Assembly (NCBI GenBank): GCA_964643605.1
Contig: CAZXTF010000001.1
Location: 1-34,023, forward strand
Length of the DNA: 34,023 nucleotides
Source of the DNA: an uncultured Candidatus Saccharibacteria bacterium
GTDB taxonomy: Bacteria; Patescibacteriota; Saccharimonadia; Saccharimonadales; 2-12-FULL-41-12
Direction of reading: 5' to 3'
Shown here: piece by piece, positions 7,116 through 34,023 of the stretch
Layout of the letters: each line of letters starts with the position of its first letter
How positions within the stretch are numbered: the first letter of the stretch is position 1
Notes under the pieces: model-generated
The model's database searches: none
What the model was told of the DNA's origin: nothing
The model's input: the letters and a program-made list of their open reading frames with translations, nothing else
Position numbers and translations under genes: made by a program

Positions 7116-7967
7116 CTATTGTACCAGCTCAGCCTTAGGATACGAGCCCAGCACCTGCAGATCAGCTGATCTACGTCCCATTTCTTCAACAGCCTGTGCC
7201 ACTGGATCTTCCTGTATGTGCCCTTCTATCTCTATATACATCGAGTGGCCACCCTCTCTAATTTCACGAGAGTGGATCTCATTCATAGATATATCTCGAT
7301 CAGCAAGTGGGCCAAGCATAGAGCGAAGCCCACCAGGCTTATCTTCTGGCTGACAGAGAATTGATGTTTTGTCGTTGCCAGTAGGCTGAGTCTCGTGCCG
7401 TGACAGAACGATGAATCGTGTGTGATTGTCTTCATGATCGTGCATATTATCAAGTACAACTCTCAGTGGAGTTGACTTTGCTACTTTGCGTGATGCAAGT
7501 ATTGCAGCGTCGGTACGTCTCAAAACCTTATCAATTGCTGCTGTGTTGCTCGATGCAAGAGTGAGATCTGCATCTGGCAGGTTATCTCCTATGGTCTGTC
7601 GGCACTGCGCGATTGTCTGATCATGACCGTACACCGTCTTGATATCTTCAATCAGCACTCCCTTTGGAGCTAACAGTGTATGTTTAATGGCCAATAGTTC
7701 TTCGCCAACGATACTAAGCTCAGTCTCTGTAAGTGCTAATTCTGCTGGCCTTACCAAACCTCGGGTTGTAGAGTTCTTAAGAGGTATCACTGCATAGTCG
7801 GCGCCTCTATTCTCTACCAGCCCCAACGCTGCCGAGATACTTTGCACTGGATTAAGTTCAACATGTGTTCCAAATCGCTGGTATACTGCCTCTTCCGAAT
7901 ACGTGCCTCTTGGTCCCAAGTAGCTTACTGCCGGTCCTCCTGGATTGATTTCTGGTGATTTATACAT
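7116..7967 (-). CDS. pheA: prephenate dehydratase (PDT + ACT domains)
   Basis: 'YLGPRGTYSEEA' at the N-terminus, 'ADYAVIPLKNS', the 'NHTRFIVLS' TRF motif, an ACT region 'DKTSILCQPEDKPGGLRSMLGPLADRDISMNEIHSRE' and a C-terminal 'LGSYP'. A GAGAGGAAAG Shine-Dalgarno lies upstream. Confidence 0.8.
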   Translation of the reverse strand: MYKSPEINPGGPAVSYLGPRGTYSEEAVYQRFGTHVELNPVQSISAALGLVENRGADYAVIPLKNSTTRGLVRPAELALTETELSIVGEELLAIKHTLLAPKGVLIEDIKTVYGHDQTIAQCRQTIGDNLPDADLTLASSNTAAIDKVLRRTDAAILASRKVAKSTPLRVVLDNMHDHEDNHTRFIVLSRHETQPTGNDKTSILCQPEDKPGGLRSMLGPLADRDISMNEIHSREIREGGHSMYIEIEGHIQEDPVAQAVEEMGRRSADLQVLGSYPKAELVQ

Positions 7968-9462: not shown

Positions 9463-10248
9463 CTACTTATATAACGCAGCAATAGCGATTAAGCCAAAGG
9501 CAAGCACAGTCGCAAAGTTAATCGCTAGATGATTCCGCTCAATAAACAAGTACTCTTTCCAGCCTTTTCGACCGGATAGGTAGTAGTATTGGTTGAAACC
9601 GTATAGGACAAAACTGATGAGTAATGTAGCTGCTAGTGCATATACTGCCCAAGTAAATCGTTCCATGCCATATACAGCGGTGCCAAAGAAGCTTCCTGCC
9701 AATGGGAACCAGGCACCAATACCAGCAAAAACCGCTACCACAAAAGGAAGCCACTTTTTCTTCTCAGCTCCATCGTTTTCTCGTTCTGAAATCCAGCACA
9801 AAAGCGACGAAACAAGCACCAAGCCAGCAACAACTTTTAAGACCATGAGGTCGGTAATACCAGCTAGTAAGTTCACCACCCCGAATAGATATGCAGCTGT
9901 TATACCGACAAAAATCCACTTATAGCCAGATACTCTGGCTTTTAGGGTAGTCTCATAATTTGCACGTAGTTTGGTAAATAGTAAGACTGCCAAAATTGCG
10001 CTTAGCGCAAAAATACCCGCCAGAATATAGCGAATCTCAACACTAAATAATTCTTTATATGCTGGTACTAAAACTACCTTTTCCCCTGGGTTCAGCAGAT
10101 CACGAGCCATATAGCCAAGCCACAAACTGACATTGGTTGTGGCGAGTAATGTCGCTGATGCAACTGCCAAAACTGCAGACGTCACTGCAGTAGCAATATT
10201 TATTTTTTTAATCTGTACTTGTAATACTTTTTTACTTGGTGCTTTCAT
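9463..10248 (-). CDS. heliorhodopsin-like 7-TM membrane protein lacking the retinal-binding Lys
   Basis: Seven hydrophobic helices plus a long TM1-TM2 loop. Three blocks match remembered heliorhodopsin sequences: 'GITDLMVL', 'WLPFVVAVFAGIGAW' and 'KGWKEYLFIER'. TM7 ('HLAINFATVLAFGLIAIAALY') contains no Lys. A GAGG Shine-Dalgarno lies 5 nt before the ATG. Confidence 0.6.
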   Translation of the reverse strand: MKAPSKKVLQVQIKKINIATAVTSAVLAVASATLLATTNVSLWLGYMARDLLNPGEKVVLVPAYKELFSVEIRYILAGIFALSAILAVLLFTKLRANYETTLKARVSGYKWIFVGITAAYLFGVVNLLAGITDLMVLKVVAGLVLVSSLLCWISERENDGAEKKKWLPFVVAVFAGIGAWFPLAGSFFGTAVYGMERFTWAVYALAATLLISFVLYGFNQYYYLSGRKGWKEYLFIERNHLAINFATVLAFGLIAIAALYK

Positions 10249-10278: not shown

Positions 10279-11811
10279 TTATGATTCTAGTTTTAGGCGT
10301 TTTATTAACCAGTCACGTGGCAAGATACTTAAAAACCATCCTGCTCGTGGTCCAGAATCTTTATTAATTGTTACCTGATAGATTGTCTGGAAAAGCTCTT
10401 TTGGGGCAAGCCCAGTGGTATCTCTTAAGTCATATACTGCCTGGTGAAACCAGCCACCATCCGCATCCTCTGGTGCTTGTTCTATTTTTTTTGCAAGACT
10501 AGATAAAAAATCTTTTTGTATATCATTAAAATTGTTTTGGTCTACCGTGTCGGCCAGCTCAAACTTCGCATCCTCTGGTGCCCAATTATTAAGCCAGCTA
10601 TCTATAAACTTTAGCTCTCGCAAGATTATATCTCGTTGTTCTTTAGCTGTATTTACATGTTCAGTTCGCTCAATAACTTCGAGTGTTTTTTCTGGATTTC
10701 GAAGTGACGCCTGATAGCTCGCTACTAGATGCGTAAATGGAATGTTGCTAATTGTTTGCTCGTCTATATCAGCTGTACACAATTCTATAAGCTGCTTTTC
10801 TGCCTCTGTCTTTTCTGGTTTTGCGATCAGCTCAGCAAATTCATCGACCAAGCGGATTAGTGTTGGACCCTGGTCAAAGAACAGTTGCTTTTCGGGAGCA
10901 TAGCGCAAGATAAAATACCAAACGATCTCAGGCGGTAATACGTTTAAGAGCTCTGATGCTGTAATAGTATCTCCTGCACTTTTGCTCATTTTTTTTGTAT
11001 CGCCCGTGCGATTGATAAAGTTATATGGCACAGGCACTGGTGCATCAGCACCAAAAACTTCTTTTACAAGTCGCCTACCTGTGTCATATGAACCACCTTT
11101 CGTAGCGTGGTCTCGGCCAAATGGTTCTACATTTACACCAAGCAGCGACCACCGAGCTGGCCAATCAATTCGCCAGCTAAGCTTCACCTCTCCATGTACG
11201 TAGCTAACTGTTTGCTCTTCACCATCTTTATCAAGACAGACAATCTCTTTTTTATCTGTATCTATAGAAATGAATTGACGATTTTTTAAATATCCCTCTT
11301 CTACTACCTGCACCGGTGACCATTGGTCATTGAGCTTGCGACCAGATACTTCTTCTAAGATATCCCTGATTTTATCGATGTTATCTAGTGCTTTTTCGAT
11401 AACTGGCACAAAATACCCTTCACGATATTTCTGGTGTGCTCGCATAATATCCACATCGAGCTTCATAGCCTTAGCTGCATCAAGTAAGTCATTCAAGAAA
11501 TAGTCTGCATATGATTGTTTGGAGCCATCTGGTGCTGGCACATCACATAGTGGCATACCGAGGTACTTACTAAAACTCTCTGGCACATCAACCGGAACTT
11601 TCCGAATATTATCTAAATCATCAACTACGTGAATATGCCGACTTTTTCGGCCACGACGACGCAGTTCACGGGCAATAATCTCGGCCGTTAGTACTTCTCG
11701 CAGCGTACCAATATGGTACGTCCCCGAAGGCGAAACACCAGAAGAAACCACGATTTCTCCATCGGGGTTTTTTGCAATAACCTCATCAGCTACATTGTTT
11801 AACCACTGCAT
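10279..11811 (-). CDS. lysK: class I lysyl-tRNA synthetase
   Basis: 510 aa with the class-I signatures 'SGTYHIGTLRE' (HIGH) and 'KKMSKSAGD' (KMSKS). Size and layout match archaeal/spirochaete-type LysRS rather than class-II LysS. Confidence 0.9.
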   Translation of the reverse strand: MQWLNNVADEVIAKNPDGEIVVSSGVSPSGTYHIGTLREVLTAEIIARELRRRGRKSRHIHVVDDLDNIRKVPVDVPESFSKYLGMPLCDVPAPDGSKQSYADYFLNDLLDAAKAMKLDVDIMRAHQKYREGYFVPVIEKALDNIDKIRDILEEVSGRKLNDQWSPVQVVEEGYLKNRQFISIDTDKKEIVCLDKDGEEQTVSYVHGEVKLSWRIDWPARWSLLGVNVEPFGRDHATKGGSYDTGRRLVKEVFGADAPVPVPYNFINRTGDTKKMSKSAGDTITASELLNVLPPEIVWYFILRYAPEKQLFFDQGPTLIRLVDEFAELIAKPEKTEAEKQLIELCTADIDEQTISNIPFTHLVASYQASLRNPEKTLEVIERTEHVNTAKEQRDIILRELKFIDSWLNNWAPEDAKFELADTVDQNNFNDIQKDFLSSLAKKIEQAPEDADGGWFHQAVYDLRDTTGLAPKELFQTIYQVTINKDSGPRAGWFLSILPRDWLIKRLKLES

Positions 11812-13671: not shown

Positions 13672-14442
13672 CTAGAAGTAGACCCCAAACACGAAAATAC
13701 TTAGGAATGCTAAGCTATTTTTCATCATGTGCACTAGTACGCCCGACCAAATATTGCCTGTTTTTTCACGCAACCAAATTAGCACTATTGATAAGACAAA
13801 CGTATCAATTGCAGCCACCCATAGCGGTGGTTCTCCGCTGCCCAATTGTAAGTGAGCAACACCAAAGATTAAACTGGCTAATACAGCTGCTGTCCTTGCA
13901 TTGAATGTCTTTTTGAAACCACCATACAAAAAACCACGTACTAAAATTTCTTCAACGATAGACGGCAAGATAACCAAGCTTGCAAAAACCAAAATCAGGC
14001 TTATGCCTTGCGCCGAGCTGAATCCAATCTGCTGCTCTTGCTCAAAATCAAGACCAGGCAAAATCGGCCTTAGAACAGCAAAAAGTATAATCAAAATTAT
14101 AAAGTAAACCACAAATACTGGCAGAGCGAGTAACAAGTTACTATCTGTGGGCTTCTTTAGGCCAAGCTGGCTAAGACTAATCGAGCGATGCCGAACAAAA
14201 ACATACAGCGCTACCAACGAAACTACCTCAATAATCAGAACAAAAAGAAACTGTGTCGTTACAGAGTTAGTGATAGCCTGCACAGCATCCTCAGTATTTT
14301 TACCCTGCAAAGTAAAGTACAGGCCCAACAGAACTCCTGCAAAAATTTGCGAGCCAAAGTAAATAAATAACGTCACAAACAGGGCTGACCCAGCCCCATA
14401 ACCCTTAATTTTGCCTGGTCTTATTTTTTCTATAATTTTCAC
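13672..14442 (-). CDS. CPBP family intramembrane glutamic endopeptidase (CAAX protease/Abi)
   Basis: A polytopic membrane protein with the three family motifs 'EEILVRG' (EExxxR), 'FGVAH' (FxxxH) and 'HMMKN' (HxxxN). Confidence 0.85.
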   Translation of the reverse strand: MKIIEKIRPGKIKGYGAGSALFVTLFIYFGSQIFAGVLLGLYFTLQGKNTEDAVQAITNSVTTQFLFVLIIEVVSLVALYVFVRHRSISLSQLGLKKPTDSNLLLALPVFVVYFIILIILFAVLRPILPGLDFEQEQQIGFSSAQGISLILVFASLVILPSIVEEILVRGFLYGGFKKTFNARTAAVLASLIFGVAHLQLGSGEPPLWVAAIDTFVLSIVLIWLREKTGNIWSGVLVHMMKNSLAFLSIFVFGVYF

Positions 14443-26466: not shown

Positions 26467-27234
26467 TTATGTTAGTCTCGTGTTAACTTCTTTTGCCAGA
26501 TTCTTATAGGCTCGTGCACCCCTGCTCCACTTGTCATGTTCTGATATCGGCTTGCCAAAGCTAGGTGCCTCTGCCAAACGAACATTCCGTGGAATCACTG
26601 TCTCAAACAATTTGTCGCCAAAGTGCTTGCCTACTTCATTATATACTTGTTCAGACAAACTTGTACGTTTGTCATACATAGTCACTACTACTCCAAGTAG
26701 TTCCAGATTTGGGTTCAAGCCACCACGGACTGTTTGTATGACTTGCAATAATTGGCTTAGGCCTTCTAGCGCATAGTACTCAGCCTGAACAGGAATTAAT
26801 ACATAGTGAGATGCCACTAGTGCATTAATAGTTAGTAAGCCTAGGGCTGGTGGACAATCTATCAATATATAGTCATAGCCACTAGCAGACCCGAGAGCAG
26901 CTGCTAACACTTCTTCTCTTTTCTCTTCTGTAGCCAGCTCAACTTCGATACTTGCCAATCGAGCATCTGTAGGTAATAAATGTATATTTTTAAAATCTGT
27001 TTGGTGTAGTACTTTGTCCAAGCTTACTTGTGAAAGTAATATGTCGCACAATGTTTGGCTTATGGCCGTCTTATCGAAACCTAAGCCACTCGTAGCATTA
27101 CCTTGTGGATCAGCATCTACCACCAAGACCGTCTTGCCCTGTTTTGCTAGATATGCAGCCAAATTAATGGTAGTGGTGGTTTTGCCCACACCACCCTTCT
27201 GGTTCAGCACAGCAATTATTTTTGTTTGTCTCAT
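26467..27234 (-). CDS. parA: chromosome partitioning ATPase ParA/Soj
   Basis: A deviant Walker A 'NQKGGVGKTTT', 'VLVVDADPQGNAT' and 'YDYILIDCPP'. I start at the ATG at 27234 (MRQTKIIAV), which has a GAGGGA Shine-Dalgarno 4 nt upstream. Confidence 0.93.
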   Translation of the reverse strand: MRQTKIIAVLNQKGGVGKTTTTINLAAYLAKQGKTVLVVDADPQGNATSGLGFDKTAISQTLCDILLSQVSLDKVLHQTDFKNIHLLPTDARLASIEVELATEEKREEVLAAALGSASGYDYILIDCPPALGLLTINALVASHYVLIPVQAEYYALEGLSQLLQVIQTVRGGLNPNLELLGVVVTMYDKRTSLSEQVYNEVGKHFGDKLFETVIPRNVRLAEAPSFGKPISEHDKWSRGARAYKNLAKEVNTRLT

Positions 27235-27297
27235 AGCTTCCCTCTGTTTATAGATTACCATGTACGTGTATCCTCAGTAAATTCAAGAAGCATAAGA

Positions 27298-27312: not shown

Positions 27313-28095
27313 ATGTCAAAAATTGATAATAGACTTAGATCCTTTACGAGGAAGCTGAATTATACTGGCTTTCTGAAAAGAGTTGGTATTGTCTTCCTGA
27401 TTTTTAGTGTGGCGTACCTCCCATATTTTTTCATCCAGCAACATCAAGCTAAAAATCAGAAAGCACCCCTGTCAAAATCTAGTATTCGTGTAGACTTAAA
27501 CCAGCACCTCATCGCCCTGCAATCCCTACGAGATATTGACACAAAAGACATATCTTCAACAGTAAGAATCGAGGGGCTCAGAAGCTCAATCGATACAACA
27601 CGAGAAAATTATAGAAAAAATCTAGCTGCCTACAAGAAAAAAGATGGCGCTATCGTACCACCTAATGCTGAAGAGTTTTTTGCCCAAGAAGAACTAATTT
27701 TAAAGAAATACGACCAAAATTACAAAGAACTTAAGAAAGTAATTCAATACTCACCAGACAAAGACTTAAACTCACTAAACCTAGCGAGCGACTTGGCAGA
27801 AGTAGCTACCCGTATCGACATCGCAACGCAAGCCCTAACTAATATCAAGAACCAAAGCAGTGCTATATCTGATCAGACAAAACAGTACATCGACCGCTCA
27901 ATTGCCTGTTTGAACGATATCCAAAAACAAGCCAGAGATAATCAAGCAGATACGCTTGATGAGCACATCAGAAGCTGCGACACAACCTATACCAGCGCCC
28001 GCTTGAGTGCAATCACCGATGTTACTCAACCACTCAGAACCACTAATAGCGAGGATCTGTTTGGTCAAATCCGTGACTTAATAAATAAATTTTAG
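27313..28095 (+). CDS. hypothetical membrane-anchored helical protein
   Basis: Starting at the ATG at 27313 (MSKIDNRL) gives about 260 aa. It has one TM helix ('VGIVFLIFSVAYLPYFFI') followed by a Lys/Gln/Asp-rich, probably alpha-helical, extracytoplasmic domain. No family is recognised. Confidence 0.5.
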   Translation: MSKIDNRLRSFTRKLNYTGFLKRVGIVFLIFSVAYLPYFFIQQHQAKNQKAPLSKSSIRVDLNQHLIALQSLRDIDTKDISSTVRIEGLRSSIDTTRENYRKNLAAYKKKDGAIVPPNAEEFFAQEELILKKYDQNYKELKKVIQYSPDKDLNSLNLASDLAEVATRIDIATQALTNIKNQSSAISDQTKQYIDRSIACLNDIQKQARDNQADTLDEHIRSCDTTYTSARLSAITDVTQPLRTTNSEDLFGQIRDLINKF

Positions 28096-28781
28096 TCTAT
28101 TGTAGTTTTTATCTGGCCATCAACAAAACTAGGCCAAGAGTCTGACTCACCACCCTCTTTTATGACCTTATACCGATTCCCTGGTGCTGGTTCGGCAAGA
28201 TCATACAAAACAACCTGCCATTCTTTTCCACTTTTGCCTGTGTACTGTGCGTAGACTATTTTGTTATCCTGTATCTTAGGACGTAGAGAGGTGCTGTCGT
28301 GGCTAATCTGATAAATCTCGGTTCCATCAAAATAAAATACTTGTTGCAGTCCTCGATTTACACCTTCCCACACTATTTTATTCCCCCAAATCGACGGAGA
28401 TAGATTAGTCCCCGTTTGCGTTATCTGCAAGATGGTTTTATCTAGCAAATCATACAAGACTATCTGAGGAAAACCCTCTACAGTCTCTGTCCAAGTTACA
28501 TACCGGCCACTTATTGCAGGTTGCGTGTGATTCCTTTGATTATTTGTAATAAAGACTTTTACATCATTATAAAGGTAGTAGACTTGCTGATAGCCACTAA
28601 CCGACTCAACCCCGATATTCAACGCATGGCCATTCAAATAACCCTCTAGTTCTTGTCGGGTTGGTTCTGGATTTGCCGATATACGACTATTAATAATTAC
28701 GAATACTATCAATACAATAGCTATTGGTAACAGCCATATTTTTGCAAGATTTAGTCCTTTTCTCAGTGTTAATCTACCCAA
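28092..28781 (-). CDS. membrane-anchored beta-propeller-repeat protein
   Basis: An N-terminal TM helix ('IWLLPIAIVLIVFVII') is followed by repeated blades: 'ISGRYVTWTE...QIVLYDL', 'IWGNKIVWEG...QVFYFDG' and 'IQDNKIVYAQ...QVVLYDL'. These resemble the G-x-x-IVW...YDL surface beta-propeller repeats of archaeal and bacterial envelope proteins. It uses a TTG start with an AAAGGA Shine-Dalgarno 5 nt upstream, inside the end of the preceding gene. Confidence 0.55.
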   Translation of the reverse strand: MGRLTLRKGLNLAKIWLLPIAIVLIVFVIINSRISANPEPTRQELEGYLNGHALNIGVESVSGYQQVYYLYNDVKVFITNNQRNHTQPAISGRYVTWTETVEGFPQIVLYDLLDKTILQITQTGTNLSPSIWGNKIVWEGVNRGLQQVFYFDGTEIYQISHDSTSLRPKIQDNKIVYAQYTGKSGKEWQVVLYDLAEPAPGNRYKVIKEGGESDSWPSFVDGQIKTTID

Positions 28782-30571
28782 GAGAATCCTTTCTCAGATC
28801 CGTCCTGGAAGAAATTACCATGCCGCAGTTGATTCTCTGTATGTGGCTTTGTTACCAATGTTGGACATTGCGCATAGTCACTCATAACACCGTCGTCACT
28901 TTCGACAAGCCTAAAACTGTACTGGGTGGCAGGTGCTGCTCCATTATGCTCTATATGAAAATCATACTCGATGGTTTGCCCCACAGCTGCACTATTAGGA
29001 TTGGTAGCTGTCGGATTAGACTTTGAGTAGAGCTCTCGAACACTCGAAGATAAGACACTCGTCGACAGCGTGACATTATTGGTAATACCAGAGGTAGCAA
29101 AACGCCAGACACTACCACTACCCCCTGCTCCTACATCCGTCCATGTACCTGCTGTGCAGCTACTATCAGTACCGGCCTTGTATTGCAGCTTAAACGCCAC
29201 ACTGTGCGCTAGCAGAGGTTGGTTACCCATCAATATCTTGACTCTTAGTCGTAGCTTATTGCCCGCACCGGGCGGATTGTATCTCGTCGGCAACGAAGGA
29301 ATCATGTTGTTTATAGGTACATCCAGCGGAGACCACGGGTCAGTAACAGCTTCGAGATTATTATCCTCATACCATCTATACGAGTTTAGCGACATAGTAA
29401 CCCTCTCTGCAATAACTACATTTACGTATTGCGGCAAGAAATAGTCATTATTACCGGTATAAAGAGGGTCGGAATTTCCGGCATAAAATGTCGCTGTCAA
29501 ATTATGGGTGTGGTTAGAAGCAGCTCCGCCAGTACCACTACCAGAGCTCGAGTTGCTACCACCAGAAGCAGCACCAGTTACACCGGTAGCGGTATGGGTA
29601 TGGTAAGCCTGCCCTCCTCCAGCGTTATAGGCGGCACCTGGCCTTAAGAATTTTCTATAGTAAACCCCCCCAGGCTCAGATCTTGATGTCCATAAATCTC
29701 CTGGGGCACCCTCGAACATTGCTGTTAAGCCCACTGTTGATGTCTGAGTATTTGCATTTGCTTTTGCAAGAATAGGCTGCACATATGGAGGTATAGCAGA
29801 ATCACTCGTACTAGTGGTTGCGCCTGGAGCAGTATGTGTATGGTTCGCTGATTTTGCCTGTGGGGATCCGCTACAGAAAAATATCCCCCCACAAATATTT
29901 GTGCTCGTGGCATTACCGCTTACACTACCCGACCAAGTTGCAGAATGCGTGTGTGTATCCGATCCAGCATTAGTGCCAGCTGTGGTATGTACTTTAAGCA
30001 CCTTGTTGTCGTACGCAGAGAGCCTAGTCCATCCAGACACAGGCATACCAGGGCTGTCGTCGAACATCACAATAGCTCCAGCAGGGATAGTAGTCGGTAT
30101 ACCGCTGTTATACTGAATGACTCTTATTGTTCTGGTTGCCGGCTCATTACTAGCAGCAGATATACTGGAGACACTTGGTAACGTAGGGTGCGAATGATTG
30201 TCTGTAGAGATTGCAGTTAGTGTGAGACCGGTTCCCGTTGTACCGTTTGTGCTTGTTATTGCCACAGATTGATTTGTATGAGAGTGTGTGGTGCCACCCC
30301 CAAGACCTCCAAAGCTAGCTGCGGCCTCACCTCTAATCATCCTGCCAGGTACTGCAGAAGAAACCTCACTCCATCCAGAGGGTACCGATATGGGGTTGCC
30401 CAGGTAATCTGTGCCATCCCAAAAAAGAATCATATCTCCGGTTGCAGCTTTTGTATGATGAGGTTTTATCAGTACAGAGAATAAGCTACCAAAGACTGCA
30501 GAAAAGGCAAAACAAATGACCACCCCAAGAATTGAGAGCCCAAAGAGCTTTTGTTTAACCGCCGTTAACAT
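28769..30571 (-). CDS. secreted/anchored protein with three tandem phage-tail-collar-like modules (six HxH motifs) and a C-terminal ~210-aa domain
   Basis: An N-terminal hydrophobic signal or anchor ('LFGLSILGVVICFAFSAVFGSLFSVLI') leads into three modules of about 110 aa (aa ~44-155, ~163-270, ~280-390). Each module has G-x-I-x-(M/L)-F, P-x-GW, a basic strand (GRMIRG / NKVLKV / RKFLRPG), GG-x-H-(S/T)-H, N-H-(S/T)-H, and (P)PY/QY-V. This order is the one I remember for Collar/MdpB-type proteins. A separate domain then begins at 'YRWYEDNN'. Confidence 0.55.
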   Translation of the reverse strand: MLTAVKQKLFGLSILGVVICFAFSAVFGSLFSVLIKPHHTKAATGDMILFWDGTDYLGNPISVPSGWSEVSSAVPGRMIRGEAAASFGGLGGGTTHSHTNQSVAITSTNGTTGTGLTLTAISTDNHSHPTLPSVSSISAASNEPATRTIRVIQYNSGIPTTIPAGAIVMFDDSPGMPVSGWTRLSAYDNKVLKVHTTAGTNAGSDTHTHSATWSGSVSGNATSTNICGGIFFCSGSPQAKSANHTHTAPGATTSTSDSAIPPYVQPILAKANANTQTSTVGLTAMFEGAPGDLWTSRSEPGGVYYRKFLRPGAAYNAGGGQAYHTHTATGVTGAASGGSNSSSGSGTGGAASNHTHNLTATFYAGNSDPLYTGNNDYFLPQYVNVVIAERVTMSLNSYRWYEDNNLEAVTDPWSPLDVPINNMIPSLPTRYNPPGAGNKLRLRVKILMGNQPLLAHSVAFKLQYKAGTDSSCTAGTWTDVGAGGSGSVWRFATSGITNNVTLSTSVLSSSVRELYSKSNPTATNPNSAAVGQTIEYDFHIEHNGAAPATQYSFRLVESDDGVMSDYAQCPTLVTKPHTENQLRHGNFFQDGSEKGFSWVD

Positions 30572-30582
30572 TTCTCAAAATC

Positions 30583-30599
30583 ACCCATAAATTATGGGT
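30583..30599 (-). terminator. weak hairpin / possible attenuating terminator between the giant gene and the collar-module gene
   Basis: The minus strand reads ACCCATA-ATT-TATGGGT (7-bp stem) followed by GATTTTGAG. A TATAAT at 30608..30603 lies just upstream. Confidence 0.3.
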
Positions 30600-30612
30600 T
30601 TAATTATACCAT

Positions 30613-33600
30613 CTAGAACTGGCTCTTGTAATTGATGAATATCTCGCCAGCTCGGGCATAGTTACCATTGCTAGCTACTGTGAGCGTAATCCTAAATACT
30701 AGCTCATCTCCGGCGTTGATAGAACAACTTGTCGTTGGGTTAGAAGTTACAAGTGCCCATGAGCCAGAACTTCCCAGAGAGTCGTTGTCACATACAGTAC
30801 CGCTACCACTCTTGTATACTCTAAGTTGCACAGCGTCAGAACCACCTGTCTTCCATCCGTAGAACTGCACCGGTGTAGCAGCAAAGCTTGCAAAGTCGCT
30901 TGGGACTTTCCATTTAACATATATGTCGTAGTCGTTCGTCGCATTAGCAGTCCATGAGTAGAAGTTATGATCCTCGTTAGCTCCACAGCTGGTACCTATA
31001 TTAAGTAGACTGCTCCCGCTACAAAAATCAGAGGTCATCGTACCAACGTTATTTGTACCGTCACCCGTTAGTACTGCCCCCGCATACTCTGGACTAAGCG
31101 TTACACTTATATCGTTCTGTGCTGTTCCACGGAATCGCAACTTGCCACCCACCTGGTCATTAAAGCTAATGCCATTCGTGCTATCGCCTACTCGTAATGT
31201 AGTTGTTACGTCTACCGAAGTTACTTCCAATGCTCTACCCGTCAAAGAGCCTGTTGCCCCACCGATGGTAATACGCATATTAGTGGTATCTGCATTTAAT
31301 AAACCGGTGCTAGATGAGTTCTGTATGCTAAATGCTGTAGTAGAATTGATAGCTGTCTGCACTAAGAAGCTATCATCTGTTTGTAGAGTATTAGCCGCAC
31401 CTCGGTAAAGGTTAGTGTCTGTGCCAAACCAGATACCACCTGTGTTAGCTGTGGTGTTGGTGCCTATGGTTAGTGCCCCATTAGCTGGTACTGCGGCTGG
31501 GCCTATGGCTACTCGTTGGTTGGTGGTGTCGGCTACGAAGAGGTTTTGGGCACCAGCATTTTGGATACGGAAGGCTGTGGTGGAGTTAGTGGAGTTTTGG
31601 CTTAGAATGTTGCCTGTCTGACCTACGGTAAAAACAGTTGTTCCATTATTTCTGGCACTCAATATATCATCATTGCCATTGACTTGATTTAGTACTAGAG
31701 TTTTTCGGCCAGCACCAACGTTGGAGTTTATGGTTACGAATCCCCCGCCAACTGCAATACTAGCATTATTGCCTCCTGCACCAAAACCAACCGTCCCTTG
31801 GAAGGAATTGGCATCGAAGAACGAAGTTCCGTTATAAAACTGTAACTGCAAGCCGTTAACAGAAGAAGTAGAAGCCCTAAGAACAGGAGCTACTATAGTG
31901 CTTGTGTGGAGTTGCATATTGGTGGTGTCGGCAGTGAATAAACTAGTGCCACTTGAATTTTGTATCTGGAAGGCGGTGGTAGAGTTAGTTTGATTGTTAA
32001 ATGTAGTAGCTCCACCATCGGCTATAGTAAACACAGCCGTAGCGTTATCCCTAGCCTGTAAAATGTTACCGGTAGAGGTTGAGTTACTTATTATGAGTGT
32101 ATCTGCGCTACCGCTAGTTCGGTTGGTTATAGTAGTAGCGCCAGTAATCGCCGTCGTACCAGCTACAGACGAACCTATGTTCACATTATTAGTAGAGCTG
32201 GCTGTCGAGTTATTACCTATGTTAATAGTTTGGGTGACAGCACCTGTGGTGTTGCCAATTTGGATGGTGTTGGCTGCTCCACCACCGCCAAGATTGAGAG
32301 CAGTACTAGCTTGGATGTCTACGTTGCTTACGCTGGTAGTGTTTCCAATAGCTATTTGGCCTGTACTAATACCGCTGTTTCCTATAGCAATACCATTGCT
32401 TCCGTTCCCACCGATAAATAGGGCGCCTGTACTGTCTATCTCAGTAGTTCCTTGTCCTGTCAGTTTTGAGCTATTGAAGGCTATCTGGAATCTGTTAACA
32501 TTGTTAGTTTCTAGATTAAGGACGTTATTATCGTTAGTACCTAGGATTGCTGCCCCGCCAAAGCTATTACCACCGTTACGGAAGAAACCGGTAGCAGAAG
32601 TATCGTCTACAGTTAGTGCACCACTAGAGTTTATTAGGCCAGAGCCAGTCAGGTCGGTCAGGGCATCGCCGTTTACAGTAAGGGTTTTGCCAGCAGCAAG
32701 GGTTAGGCCATTGTTTATAGTGGTGGTACCGGTACTAGCTCCAAGCGATATAGTAGTAGCTGCACCAAAGGCGTTTATTGTGGTAGCATCTGTATTTAAC
32801 AAATTAAAGGTGGTAGATGTAGTTGTTAAGTCCCCACCGTTTACAGCTAAGGTACCTCCTATTACTCCGTTACCAGTGATATTAAAGTCGGCTGTTTGGG
32901 GGCTAGTGCCGTTTTGAATAAATCCGCTTGGGTCAGCCGCTGTGCTGCCAATAATTCGCCACAAGCTGGCGCCAGAGTCATATATAAGAGTTACAGAACT
33001 GCCCGCTGCCAAGGTCATGTCCGACCCTGTGCCAGTAACAATCCTATTGGCAGCCGAGGAGCTGCCAGAATTGTTGGCAAGTGTAGCGTCTTGGCTAGCC
33101 GCATTCATCATAGTTAGTATCTTGCCGTCCCTACCGCCAGCGATACCAGTGATAGTCTGAGCAGATGCACCAGTTAGGCGAATCAGAGACACATCGCCAA
33201 AGTTAACGTTATCACTACTGCCAGTCGTAGAAAAGTCTGTCCCTCGCTTAAACGCAGTCGAGCCAGTTACGTCTAGCTGTCCGCCAATACCTATGTTTCC
33301 GTTGAATTGCGAAGAATCCAAGACAGTTAAGCCACCTTGTACAGACAGATTGCCACCTATGCTGCCGCTGCTTTGTACACTCAGGGTACTCGTCTCAACT
33401 CCACCCGTCTCTAATTGCTGTACATAGGCGCCCCCGAGATCGAAGATTTGGAGGGTGTTGGAGCTTTGGTTTGTAACATACGCATAGCGGCCTTGGACGG
33501 AGACGAAGTTAGGCTGAGTGTCTGTAGCTACGGAACCGACGCTAGTGGGGCTGGCTGGATTAGAGATGTTGATAATTTGGAGAGTATTAGAGCCGTAGTT

Positions 33601-34023
33601 AGCCACATAAGCATATCTACCCTGTGTATACACAGAGCGAGGATCATTACCAGCTGCAACAGAGCCAACACTGGCCGGTGAAGCGGGGTTACTGACATCG
33701 AAGATTTGCAGGGTGCCACTACCATCACCACGCACTACATATGCATACCTGCCTTGGACCTGGACAGAGCGTGGCTGGCTTCCTGTAACAATACTGCCCG
33801 TTAGTGTAGGACTTGCGGGGTTACTGACATCGAAGATTTGTAATGAGTCTGTGCCGCCTATATGTATTATATACATGTAGCGGCCCTGTACTTGGACATA
33901 GTTTGGAGCCGCACCTGTAGCTACGCTGCCCGTTAGTGTAGGACTTGCGGGGTTACTGACATCGAAGATTTGCAGGGTGGCAGAGTTATATATCGTGACA
34001 TACGCATATCTGCCTTGGATGTA
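30613..34023 (-). CDS. giant surface protein: N-terminal LVIVD beta-propeller repeats + long Gly/Thr/Ser/Asn-rich fibre-like region + conserved-looking C-terminal domain; 5' end outside window
   Basis: The reading frame stays open upstream of the track's ATG (33876) to the window edge, translating as '...YIQGRYAYVTIYNSATLQIFDVSNPASPTLTGSVATGAAPNYVQVQGRY-MYII...'. At least 4.5 units of 43-44 aa follow the pattern 'LQIFDVSNPASP..GS....G..P..V.VQGRYAYV' (LVIVD-repeat signature). Then come about 750 aa of low-complexity beta-rich sequence, including repeated 'ARDNATAVFT...NSTTAF(Q/R/S)IQN..G..LF.ADTTN' modules. The C-terminal domain of about 170 aa begins 'LSPEYAGAVLTGDG'. Confidence 0.7.
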   Translation of the reverse strand, partial: YIQGRYAYVTIYNSATLQIFDVSNPASPTLTGSVATGAAPNYVQVQGRYMYIIHIGGTDSLQIFDVSNPASPTLTGSIVTGSQPRSVQVQGRYAYVVRGDGSGTLQIFDVSNPASPASVGSVAAGNDPRSVYTQGRYAYVANYGSNTLQIINISNPASPTSVGSVATDTQPNFVSVQGRYAYVTNQSSNTLQIFDLGGAYVQQLETGGVETSTLSVQSSGSIGGNLSVQGGLTVLDSSQFNGNIGIGGQLDVTGSTAFKRGTDFSTTGSSDNVNFGDVSLIRLTGASAQTITGIAGGRDGKILTMMNAASQDATLANNSGSSSAANRIVTGTGSDMTLAAGSSVTLIYDSGASLWRIIGSTAADPSGFIQNGTSPQTADFNITGNGVIGGTLAVNGGDLTTTSTTFNLLNTDATTINAFGAATTISLGASTGTTTINNGLTLAAGKTLTVNGDALTDLTGSGLINSSGALTVDDTSATGFFRNGGNSFGGAAILGTNDNNVLNLETNNVNRFQIAFNSSKLTGQGTTEIDSTGALFIGGNGSNGIAIGNSGISTGQIAIGNTTSVSNVDIQASTALNLGGGGAANTIQIGNTTGAVTQTINIGNNSTASSTNNVNIGSSVAGTTAITGATTITNRTSGSADTLIISNSTSTGNILQARDNATAVFTIADGGATTFNNQTNSTTAFQIQNSSGTSLFTADTTNMQLHTSTIVAPVLRASTSSVNGLQLQFYNGTSFFDANSFQGTVGFGAGGNNASIAVGGGFVTINSNVGAGRKTLVLNQVNGNDDILSARNNGTTVFTVGQTGNILSQNSTNSTTAFRIQNAGAQNLFVADTTNQRVAIGPAAVPANGALTIGTNTTANTGGIWFGTDTNLYRGAANTLQTDDSFLVQTAINSTTAFSIQNSSSTGLLNADTTNMRITIGGATGSLTGRALEVTSVDVTTTLRVGDSTNGISFNDQVGGKLRFRGTAQNDISVTLSPEYAGAVLTGDGTNNVGTMTSDFCSGSSLLNIGTSCGANEDHNFYSWTANATNDYDIYVKWKVPSDFASFAATPVQFYGWKTGGSDAVQLRVYKSGSGTVCDNDSLGSSGSWALVTSNPTTSCSINAGDELVFRITLTVASNGNYARAGEIFINYKSQF
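33430..34023 (-). repeat. in-frame tandem 129/132-bp repeats encoding LVIVD units
   Basis: Unit boundaries (first codon of 'LQIF', minus strand) fall at 33975, 33843, 33711, 33582 and 33453. There is an exact 47-nt identity between 33794-33840 and 33926-33972, and an exact 33-nt identity between 33683-33715 and 33947-33979. Confidence 0.85.

Follow-up and report, generated by a model that had tools for sequence, protein, structure and literature searches.

What does an ultrasmall bacterium do with a run of large, apparently exported proteins in which no enzyme can be recognised? The question is raised by one end of a 34,023-nt stretch of DNA (contig CAZXTF010000001.1; the whole stretch is called the window below) from an uncultured Candidatus Saccharibacteria bacterium. 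A preliminary description, made from the sequence alone, had drawn attention there to a co-directional cluster on the minus strand. The layout that it gave holds in every detail: an open frame of at least 1136 aa for a giant protein, a gap of 41 nt, a gene for a 600-aa protein and, overlapping the latter by 13 nt, a gene for a 229-aa propeller protein with a TTG start and an AAAGGA Shine-Dalgarno. The unit is larger than the three genes then proposed, as a convergent gene at 27313-28095 is conserved with them across phyla. We propose that these four genes form a Patescibacteria cassette of exported, non-catalytic proteins that assemble into a surface fibre or adhesin complex, and we put the probability of this reading at roughly 0.55.

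Gene order across Patescibacteria

One line of evidence for this proposal is gene order. Two C-terminal domains serve as landmarks: C600, a beta-sandwich near the end of the 600-aa protein, and giantC, a jelly roll at the end of the giant protein. In a set of 34 loci taken from species-representative genomes, C600 ends a protein in 21. The propeller gene stands directly downstream in 19 of these 21 loci, and a protein with the jelly-roll domain is encoded upstream in 14, most of the other loci being short of upstream sequence. The order of jelly-roll gene, C600 gene and propeller gene, whose presence in related genomes had been named as a check on the cluster, is thus kept. It recurs in Saccharibacteria, WWE3, Chisholmbacteria, BroJett032 and other Patescibacteria, in about 20 independent genomes, and this recurrence exceeds chance. 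The genes that flank the cassette differ between loci and lineages. In the first two proteins the N-terminal parts also differ from lineage to lineage: the second protein carries three His-x-His modules (N3) in Saccharibacteria, LamG and DUF2341 in one other lineage and nothing recognisable elsewhere.

The junction between the 600-aa gene and the propeller gene is also informative. The Shine-Dalgarno lies 9 nt upstream of the propeller TTG, and both fall within the codons for the C-terminal tail of the 600-aa protein. The overlap is kept at four loci (L001, L003, L010 and L012), and it suggests translational coupling of the two genes. We take the long TTG start to be right because the propeller orthologues, at 226-234 aa, can be aligned with the protein from end to end (100%), its N-terminal hydrophobic segment included. 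The database record for the window's own sequence (P0037) has 181 aa, starts at Leu49 and is without the hydrophobic N-terminus; this short form is probably a start-codon miscall.

The convergent gene encodes a protein with an N-terminal transmembrane (TM) segment, a helical ectodomain and two conserved Cys. Its longest open reading frame (ORF; 289 aa) begins at TTG 27226 and would run 36 nt into the 5' end of parA. The start at ATG 27313 is favoured because the orthologues are 252-258 aa long. Such orthologues are present in six Saccharibacteria loci, and hhalign connects the protein with equally placed convergent genes at L003, in WWE3 (L013) and in Chisholmbacteria (L028) at probabilities of 87-93% (E 3e-7 to 4e-6). 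Judged by these profile matches, the convergent gene is a fourth conserved member of the cassette across phyla. The propeller gene and the convergent gene share 4 nt at their stop codons (28092-28095), and no intergenic terminator lies between them. At L001 and L002 the two genes stand 1 nt apart, with no overlap.

As the preliminary description had stated, enzymatic motifs are missing: no enzymatic family was found for the cassette proteins in scans of Pfam, NCBIfam and PHROGs, nor among PDB sequences for the 600-aa family, the propeller and the C-terminal 275 aa of the giant. In several lineages, small secreted proteins of about 230-470 aa without Pfam matches adjoin the cassette or giant proteins that bear N3 (Table 1). 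Some have N-termini of the type ..PASTNYKLD.FG.G.GG, and they may be additional envelope components.

Domains of the cassette proteins

The 600-aa protein belongs to a large family. A k-mer-limited search gave 36 relatives, and an exhaustive profile search gave 2391 cluster representatives at E <= 1e-3, 593 of them at E <= 1e-30; C600 is a separable domain in the 2391. It is recognised by the motif YRWY..LRLR..FKLQYK..C..WTDV..YSFR..CP and by an invariant Cys pair (C472 and C569). Its Foldseek matches in the PDB are weak and fall on immunoglobulin-like (Ig-like) sandwiches. Homology between C600 and giantC was considered and rejected, the hhalign probability being 1.6%.

Behind C600 stands a short C-terminal tail with the consensus [LM]RHGxFF......GFxW[AVS][DN]-COOH. 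Among 257 copies of C600 in the retrieved proteins, the tail was found in 118 of 119 protein-terminal copies and in none of 136 internal ones. Where N3 and C600-like domains lie inside proteins of 3000-4600 aa, the tail is absent and no propeller gene follows. The C-termini of the 600-aa and giant proteins (..GFSWVD and ..YKSQF) have no LPXTG, TM segment or basic tail, and no family for LPXTG, SLH, WxL or the C-terminal domain of type IX secretion (T9SS CTD) was found in the cassette proteins with Pfam and NCBIfam.

At its other end the 600-aa protein has a helix at residues 3-34 in the AlphaFold2 (AF2) model. A family motif P-x-H-x-x-A follows the hydrophobic region (alignment A1) and is compatible with a signal-peptidase site, so that this N-terminus could be either a signal peptide or a signal-anchor. 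AxA-type cleavage sites follow the hydrophobic segments of many family members. The hydrophobic N-termini reported earlier for the cluster are therefore present; their reading as membrane anchors is less secure, cleavable signal peptides appearing equally plausible. We infer export because the N-termini are of the Sec type, with AxA-like sites, and because Cys pairs occur in otherwise Cys-free proteins.

Between the N-terminus and C600 lie the three tandem homologous modules of N3, each with the pattern (M/I)xxF(W)D..PSGW..G(R)xxRG and two His-x-His (HxH) motifs. The HxH residues (H96/98 and H126/128; H207/209 and H244/246; H324/326 and H354/356) are in register in the self-alignment. Of 114 domains, 106 keep the second HxH in every module; the first is kept in every module in 36 and in no module in 28. 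The AF2 model has a mean predicted local distance difference test score (pLDDT) of 83 and a predicted template modelling score (pTM) of 0.74, with values in the N3 region mostly at 85-97. Foldseek against BFVD matched N3 at probability 1.0 to the predicted structures of two proteins of the Actinoplanes phage phiAsp2, Pas29 (E 5e-13) and Pas28 (E 1e-11), and hhalign gave probabilities of 96.7% and 97.2% for the same pair (E 4e-10 and 4e-11). The similarity in fold and profile extends over about 270-540 columns, and (hydrophobic)xxFxG..P.GW..G(R)F.RG..GG..HxH is the pattern that the tandem modules have in common. The annotation of Pas29 names HXHY motifs and a possible receptor-recognising function. 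Both phage proteins fall in phrog_5795 ('tail protein'), and Pas28 also matches phrog_1800 ('tail collar fiber protein') at 1e-6. The 600-aa protein had been called a triple tail-collar HxH protein. The three HxH modules stand, and the tail-collar likeness survives as a remote one, transitive through Pas28 and phrog_1800; the direct hidden Markov model (HMM) test did not bear it out, as Pfam Collar (PF07484) gave no match at E <= 1. Against PDB sequences the family profile returned spurious matches or none.

N3 also occurs alone, without C600, tail or propeller gene, in a 468-aa signal-bearing protein on a 97-kb contig of an Aenigmatarchaeota metagenome-assembled genome (MAG) and likewise in a signal-bearing protein on a 4.6-kb contig of a Micrarchaeota MAG (Table 1), these DPANN labels being taken from the MAG records. 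If the labels are right, bacterial and archaeal episymbionts may have the triple HxH module in common.

The visible part of the giant protein begins with a beta-propeller and ends with a jelly roll. Five GRY[AM]Y.. units with a period of 44 aa lie within visible residues 1-197, and the LVIVD repeat proposed earlier is confirmed by Pfam (PF08309; 107.3 bits against a cut-off of 20.2, E 2e-31, four stretches). The composition of the central stretch likewise agrees with the Gly/Thr/Asn-rich character first ascribed to it. This stretch is Cys-free, has few charged residues and three 'NSTTAFxIQN..LFxADTTN' units, matches no family in the Pfam scan, and is read here as a fibre or stalk.

GiantC is marked by the motif GTA..TL.PEYAGAVLTGDGTNNVGTMTSDFCS..., by four near-invariant Cys and by the ending ..YKSQF-COOH, and its AF2 model has a pLDDT >90 throughout the domain. 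Foldseek matched it (E 2e-5 to 3e-3) to the carbohydrate-binding modules (CBMs) CBM11 (2c26), CBM61 (2xom) and CBM4/6/36, the CBM matches at E 2e-5 to 1e-3 and probability 1.0, and also to the C-domain of the K2-2 tailspike of a Klebsiella phage (8iqe) and to the short-tail-fibre CBD of cyanophage A-1(L) (8ke9). The TM-scores are modest, 0.3 on the query and up to 0.58 on the target. No CBM family was found for it in the Pfam scan and no match among PDB sequences. The fold resembles carbohydrate-binding modules, and sugar binding is only predicted. Five IMG/VR contigs encode relatives of giantC; on the two that were examined (L039 and L041), the relative ends a protein of 277-322 aa, right after tail or baseplate genes. 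At the level of folds and profiles, then, two module types of the cassette, N3 and the jelly roll, are related to phage tail proteins.

LVIVD, which had been counted among the modules of the cluster, was rejected as a hallmark of the cassette. Between the N-terminal part of the giant protein and the 1774-aa orthologue at L001 there is no alignment, the orthologue has no LVIVD match, and LVIVD is common in unrelated giant proteins. Relatives of the LVIVD part were found at 383 metagenome loci, and genes for N3, C600 and the propeller at none of 80 such loci. Since these loci lack the other cassette genes, we regard the LVIVD module as an interchangeable insert in a fibre protein. Proteins that run from LVIVD through fibre to jelly roll do exist in metagenomes, at 1284 to >6533 aa (Table 1), and the complete ones begin with a hydrophobic segment (Sec signal or TM). 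At L113 and L072 this segment is followed by an 'INFQARL..YNVEFKIYN' domain. By analogy, orthologues and look-alikes suggest that the missing N-terminus of the window's giant protein would consist of a Sec signal or TM segment and, after it, an 'INFQ..YNV.FKIY' domain. A search of metagenome contigs for an exact 52-nt match to the window end found none and did not recover this N-terminus, and an exact-protein look-up with the 600-aa product, aimed at the same end, returned no record.

In the spacer that separates the giant gene from the 600-aa gene, an extended -10-like TGGTATAAT is present, as is a hairpin ACCCATAA/TTATGGGT with GATTTTG behind it. From these consensus matches the spacer is possibly an internal promoter and/or attenuator. 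In its longer counterpart at the orthologous locus L001, a 55-aa ORF is called.

The 229-aa protein, in which G-x-x-IVW blades had been noted earlier, matches TIGR04275 (beta_prop_Msarc, NCBIfam) at E 6.6e-21 with 73.8 bits, below its curated cut-off of 85; the repeat is also matched by 13 of 15 members of the propeller family at E <= 0.01. The scores against the TolB equivalogs are 18 bits (cut-off 405) and 15.9 bits (cut-off 343), and the closest PDB sequences are TolB propellers at E 0.0025. The conserved core of about 170 aa holds three full PD40/TolB-like blades with an N-terminal and a C-terminal half blade, which suggests a propeller of four blades.

Table 1. Positions of the cassette, of its parts and of other features, in the window and in the related loci named
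Feature	Sequence	Position	Strand	Extent and basis
Giant gene	window	frame stop at 30613, open through 34023	minus	at least 1136 aa; continues past window end
LVIVD beta-propeller part	window	33433..34023	minus	visible aa 1-197, at least 4.5 blades; PF08309, motif periodicity
Central stretch	window	31192..33432	minus	aa ~198-945, Gly/Thr/Ser/Asn/Ala-rich; composition, motifs
giantC jelly roll	window	30616..31191	minus	last ~190 aa; alignment A3, AF2, Foldseek
Spacer between giant and 600-aa genes	window	30572..30612	minus	41 nt; sequence, consensus scan
600-aa gene	window	28769-30571	minus	ORF, 41 nt after giant gene
N-terminus of 600-aa protein	window	30446..30571	minus	aa 1-42; basic N-terminus, ~25-aa hydrophobic helix, then KPHHTKAA
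N3, three tandem modules	window	29417..30445	minus	aa 43-385; self-alignment, AF2, Foldseek, hhalign
C600 beta-sandwich	window	28844..29416	minus	aa 386-576, ~190 aa; alignment A1, AF2
C-terminal tail of 600-aa protein	window	28772..28843	minus	last 24 aa; ends ..LRHGNFFQDGSEKGFSWVD-COOH
Propeller gene	window	28092-28781	minus	229 aa, TTG start; TIGR04275, alignment A5
Convergent gene	window	27313..28095	plus	260 aa from ATG 27313; ORF, orthologues, hhalign
parA	window	26467-27261	minus	flanks cassette
Heliorhodopsin gene	window	9463-10248	minus	261-aa ORF; Pfam PF18761, E 3e-26
SecA, SerRS, class-I LysRS, GreA, RRF, EF-Ts, S2, L31, RF1/PrmC	window			housekeeping genes
HtrA, LCP-family protein, signal peptidase I, ParB/ParA	window			
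N3 alone, Aenigmatarchaeota MAG	L033	7905-9311		468 aa
N3 alone, Micrarchaeota MAG	L036	1773-4646		
LVIVD-fibre-jelly-roll protein	L104	2-19603		>6533 aa
LVIVD-fibre-jelly-roll protein	L072	2579-12796		3405 aa
LVIVD-fibre-jelly-roll protein	L108	5552-12199		2215 aa
Neighbouring small secreted proteins	L003	2195-7112		
Neighbouring small secreted proteins	L012	548-1645		
Neighbouring small secreted proteins	L016	1039-2148		
Neighbouring small secreted proteins	L018	1524-2609		
Neighbouring small secreted proteins	L023	910-1953		
Neighbouring small secreted proteins	L026	11835-16273		

Proposed assembly and function

Several known systems resemble parts of the cassette. The HxH tail proteins of phages, with the T4 gp37 and gp12 fibre tips and the 'tail collar' fibre proteins counted among them, are likewise non-enzymatic, all-beta proteins of a binding type. 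Unlike them, the 600-aa protein begins with a Sec-type N-terminus and ends with a cellular C-terminal domain and a tail, and it is encoded in a chromosomal cassette with no virion genes nearby. GiantC shares with CBM jelly rolls and with the C-domains of tailspikes and tail fibres a beta-sandwich jelly roll at the extreme C-terminus of a long fibre; it differs from them in having no sequence match and four conserved Cys, and in being the most conserved rather than the most variable part. With the LVIVD cell-surface proteins (PF08309) the giant protein has in common a clear HMM match, the 44-aa period and a predicted beta-propeller, whereas LVIVD is here an insert that can be exchanged. The propeller protein resembles TolB and the Methanosarcina-type TIGR04275 family in its PD40/TolB-like blades within a predicted exported protein, and a propeller paired with a bitopic protein of long helical ectodomain is loosely reminiscent of TolA. 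However, about four blades stand against six in TolB, the scores are far below the TolB equivalog cut-offs, and no genes for TolQ, TolR or Pal are present in the window. Saccharibacteria are generally regarded as monoderm. Finally, the Csc/WxL clusters of lactobacilli and enterococci are multi-protein surface clusters with conserved C-terminal anchoring domains, and the cassette seems to follow a similar logic, with several co-transcribed, predicted secreted proteins that have variable N-terminal parts and conserved C-terminal domains, and with no enzymes; it differs in the absence of WxL, DUF916 and LPXTG and in that its domain families have no Pfam models.

We envisage that all four cassette proteins would be exported by Sec. 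The propeller, the bitopic helical protein or both would stay at the membrane or wall and capture the C-terminal tail of the 600-aa protein, so that the conserved C-terminal parts form the base of the structure. The variable modules and the CBM-like tip would then face outward and could bind glycans or proteins on another cell. Docking of the tail on the propeller is proposed by analogy with TolB propellers, which bind partner proteins and peptides. The propeller and the 600-aa protein would be made together, since the propeller start codon lies inside the codons of the tail. As for the six near-universal His, one HxH per module, they could build one metal site in a single-chain pseudo-trimer; alternatively, three stacked sites could form in a homotrimer, as in the T4 fibre tips. 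HxH coordinates iron in T4 gp37. It is tempting to go further and see in the cassette an undescribed host-recognition device of Patescibacteria, built from phage receptor-binding modules, in which a giant fibre with a lectin tip and a pseudo-trimeric HxH metal module would be held by a docking peptide (RHGxFF..GFxWxD-COOH) plugged into a four-bladed TolB-like propeller. Taken as a whole, this elaborate version is unlikely, and we put it forward tentatively.

Several observations weigh against the proposal of a surface fibre or adhesin complex. Export, assembly, host recognition and the ligand of the cassette proteins are all things that we infer. Scans of the 600-aa protein with Pfam and PHROGs, the Collar model and the PHROG tail HMMs included, gave no family even at E <= 1, and Foldseek of its model against the PDB gave nothing below E 0.01. 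The N-terminus of the giant gene lies beyond the window end. The cassette is accessory to the epibiotic lifestyle at the parA locus, because in the cultured epibiont Southlakia epibionticum that gene is flanked by L21 and an NTP-transferase instead. Lastly, giantC is the best-conserved part of the giant protein, with 87-88% identity at L001 and L004 against 61-66% for the stalk (the latter measured on the 1774-aa orthologue at L001). This is the opposite of what host-tracking phage fibre tips show, and it favours either docking or a conserved ligand, for example the wall of the cell itself.

The last point leads to the main alternative, that the cassette builds an envelope structure directed at the cell itself, for example an S-layer-like coat or a wall scaffold, which would serve architecture or protection and not host recognition. 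Wall-anchoring modules of Gram-positive surface proteins are conserved, and in the cassette, too, the C-terminal domains are the most conserved ones. The CBM-like fold could bind glycopolymers of the cell itself; the longer homologues of the propeller add Pro/Thr/Glu-rich C-terminal tails, linkers that are typical of wall-spanning segments; and the cassette spans many Patescibacteria lineages whose hosts are presumably different. An LCP-family glycopolymer ligase and a signal peptidase are encoded nearby, although the same block exists in Southlakia without the cassette alongside. A coat or scaffold is, on the other hand, harder to reconcile with the accessory status of the cassette at the parA locus and with modules related to phage receptor-recognition proteins. 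The size of the giant protein and its low-complexity stalk are more like a fibre than like a lattice subunit, and Pfam scans found no SLH, CWB2 or other known wall-anchor family. We consider this alternative somewhat unlikely, yet it is the one to be taken most seriously.

A lectin-like role in scavenging, by which the cassette would capture extracellular glycans or nutrients for a metabolically reduced cell without any adhesion, could be drawn from the same likeness of the jelly roll to carbohydrate-binding modules, from the LamG and DUF2341 in the second gene of one lineage and from the missing catalytic domain, which leaves binding as the sole predicted activity. But no transporter or glycoside hydrolase is linked to the cassette in the window or in the related loci examined, and a fibre of >1100 aa is an odd design for substrate capture, so that we judge this role improbable. 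That the genes are a prophage, a tailocin or other phage-derived tail-fibre genes in the chromosome, and not a cellular system at all, seems very improbable to us. N3 and the jelly roll do have relatives in phage tail modules, and the LVIVD part of the giant matches a PHROG of unknown function. However, no capsid, terminase, tape-measure, baseplate or integrase gene lies in the 28 kb downstream (3' side) of the cluster, and the same is true of the related loci. All cassette proteins have Sec-type N-termini, which virion proteins lack, and the gene order is conserved across phyla in different chromosomal contexts. Moreover, a scan of IMG/VR with the alignment of the 600-aa family gave no relative, and among 50,697 phage records tblastn found no match to the 600-aa protein. 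We retain the surface fibre or adhesin complex as our preferred reading.

Genomic setting and significance

The assignment to the Candidate Phyla Radiation (CPR) made in the preliminary description is supported: the cluster has its closest relatives in MAGs labelled Candidatus Saccharibacteria, in which the 600-aa protein is 63-72% identical and the ParA/ParB flank is shared. A block of ParA, ParB, signal peptidase, LCP protein, hypothetical protein and HtrA is also found in Southlakia epibionticum (PMC10633639); at its parA, the only locus compared, the cassette does not stand beside the gene. Identity of the cassette with the surface proteins SEML1_0890/0891, which are essential in transposon sequencing (Tn-seq) of Southlakia, was considered and rejected, as their context is other and their domains are different. 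One of the two is Ig-like and has 195 aa; the other, of 565 aa, has lysozyme-like and seven-bladed domains (PMC10633639).

Apart from the cassette, the window contains mostly housekeeping genes (Table 1). The cassette had been called the sole clearly non-housekeeping block, which no longer holds, since a heliorhodopsin gene is present as well. Heliorhodopsin is a light-sensing membrane protein, here in what looks like a Saccharibacteria genome. Genes for a prephenate dehydratase with ACT domain, a class-I lysyl-tRNA synthetase and an Rce1-like CAAX protease (7116-7967, 10279-11811 and 13672-14442, all on the minus strand) are present in this genome, although its group is known for reduced biosynthesis. 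The GC content rises from 0.41-0.44 to 0.46-0.51 across 29000-34023. The GC skew is positive over the giant gene, and its cumulative minimum lies at about 31 kb, with parAB adjacent. The shift in GC and skew is probably due to the codon composition of the Gly/Thr/Ala-rich giant gene rather than to a replication origin. Scans of the window for tRNA and Rfam families gave no match.

The cluster had been presented as one that matches no described system, and the literature that we searched gives no account of the cassette, of its four domain families or of the C-terminal tail. None of the four families has a Pfam model. The general idea of surface host-recognition proteins is not new, because such candidates are already a common proposal for Patescibacteria, in the form of large surface proteins with domains of the adhesion type (PMC13059738, PMC10633639). 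Genetic work has so far implicated type IV pili and a few adhesins in host attachment of episymbionts (PMC10633639, PMC12206443).

By what means ultrasmall episymbionts locate their hosts and stay attached to them is a largely open question. To this question the cassette brings four uncharacterised, widespread protein families in a conserved gene order, and it yields hypotheses on tail-to-propeller docking, on a histidine metal site and on a glycan-binding tip. Should it be merely a self-directed envelope structure, it would still provide new domain families for genes that are now annotated as 'hypothetical'. As a surface fibre or adhesin complex, its proteins would be candidate specificity determinants for the pairing of Patescibacteria with their hosts.

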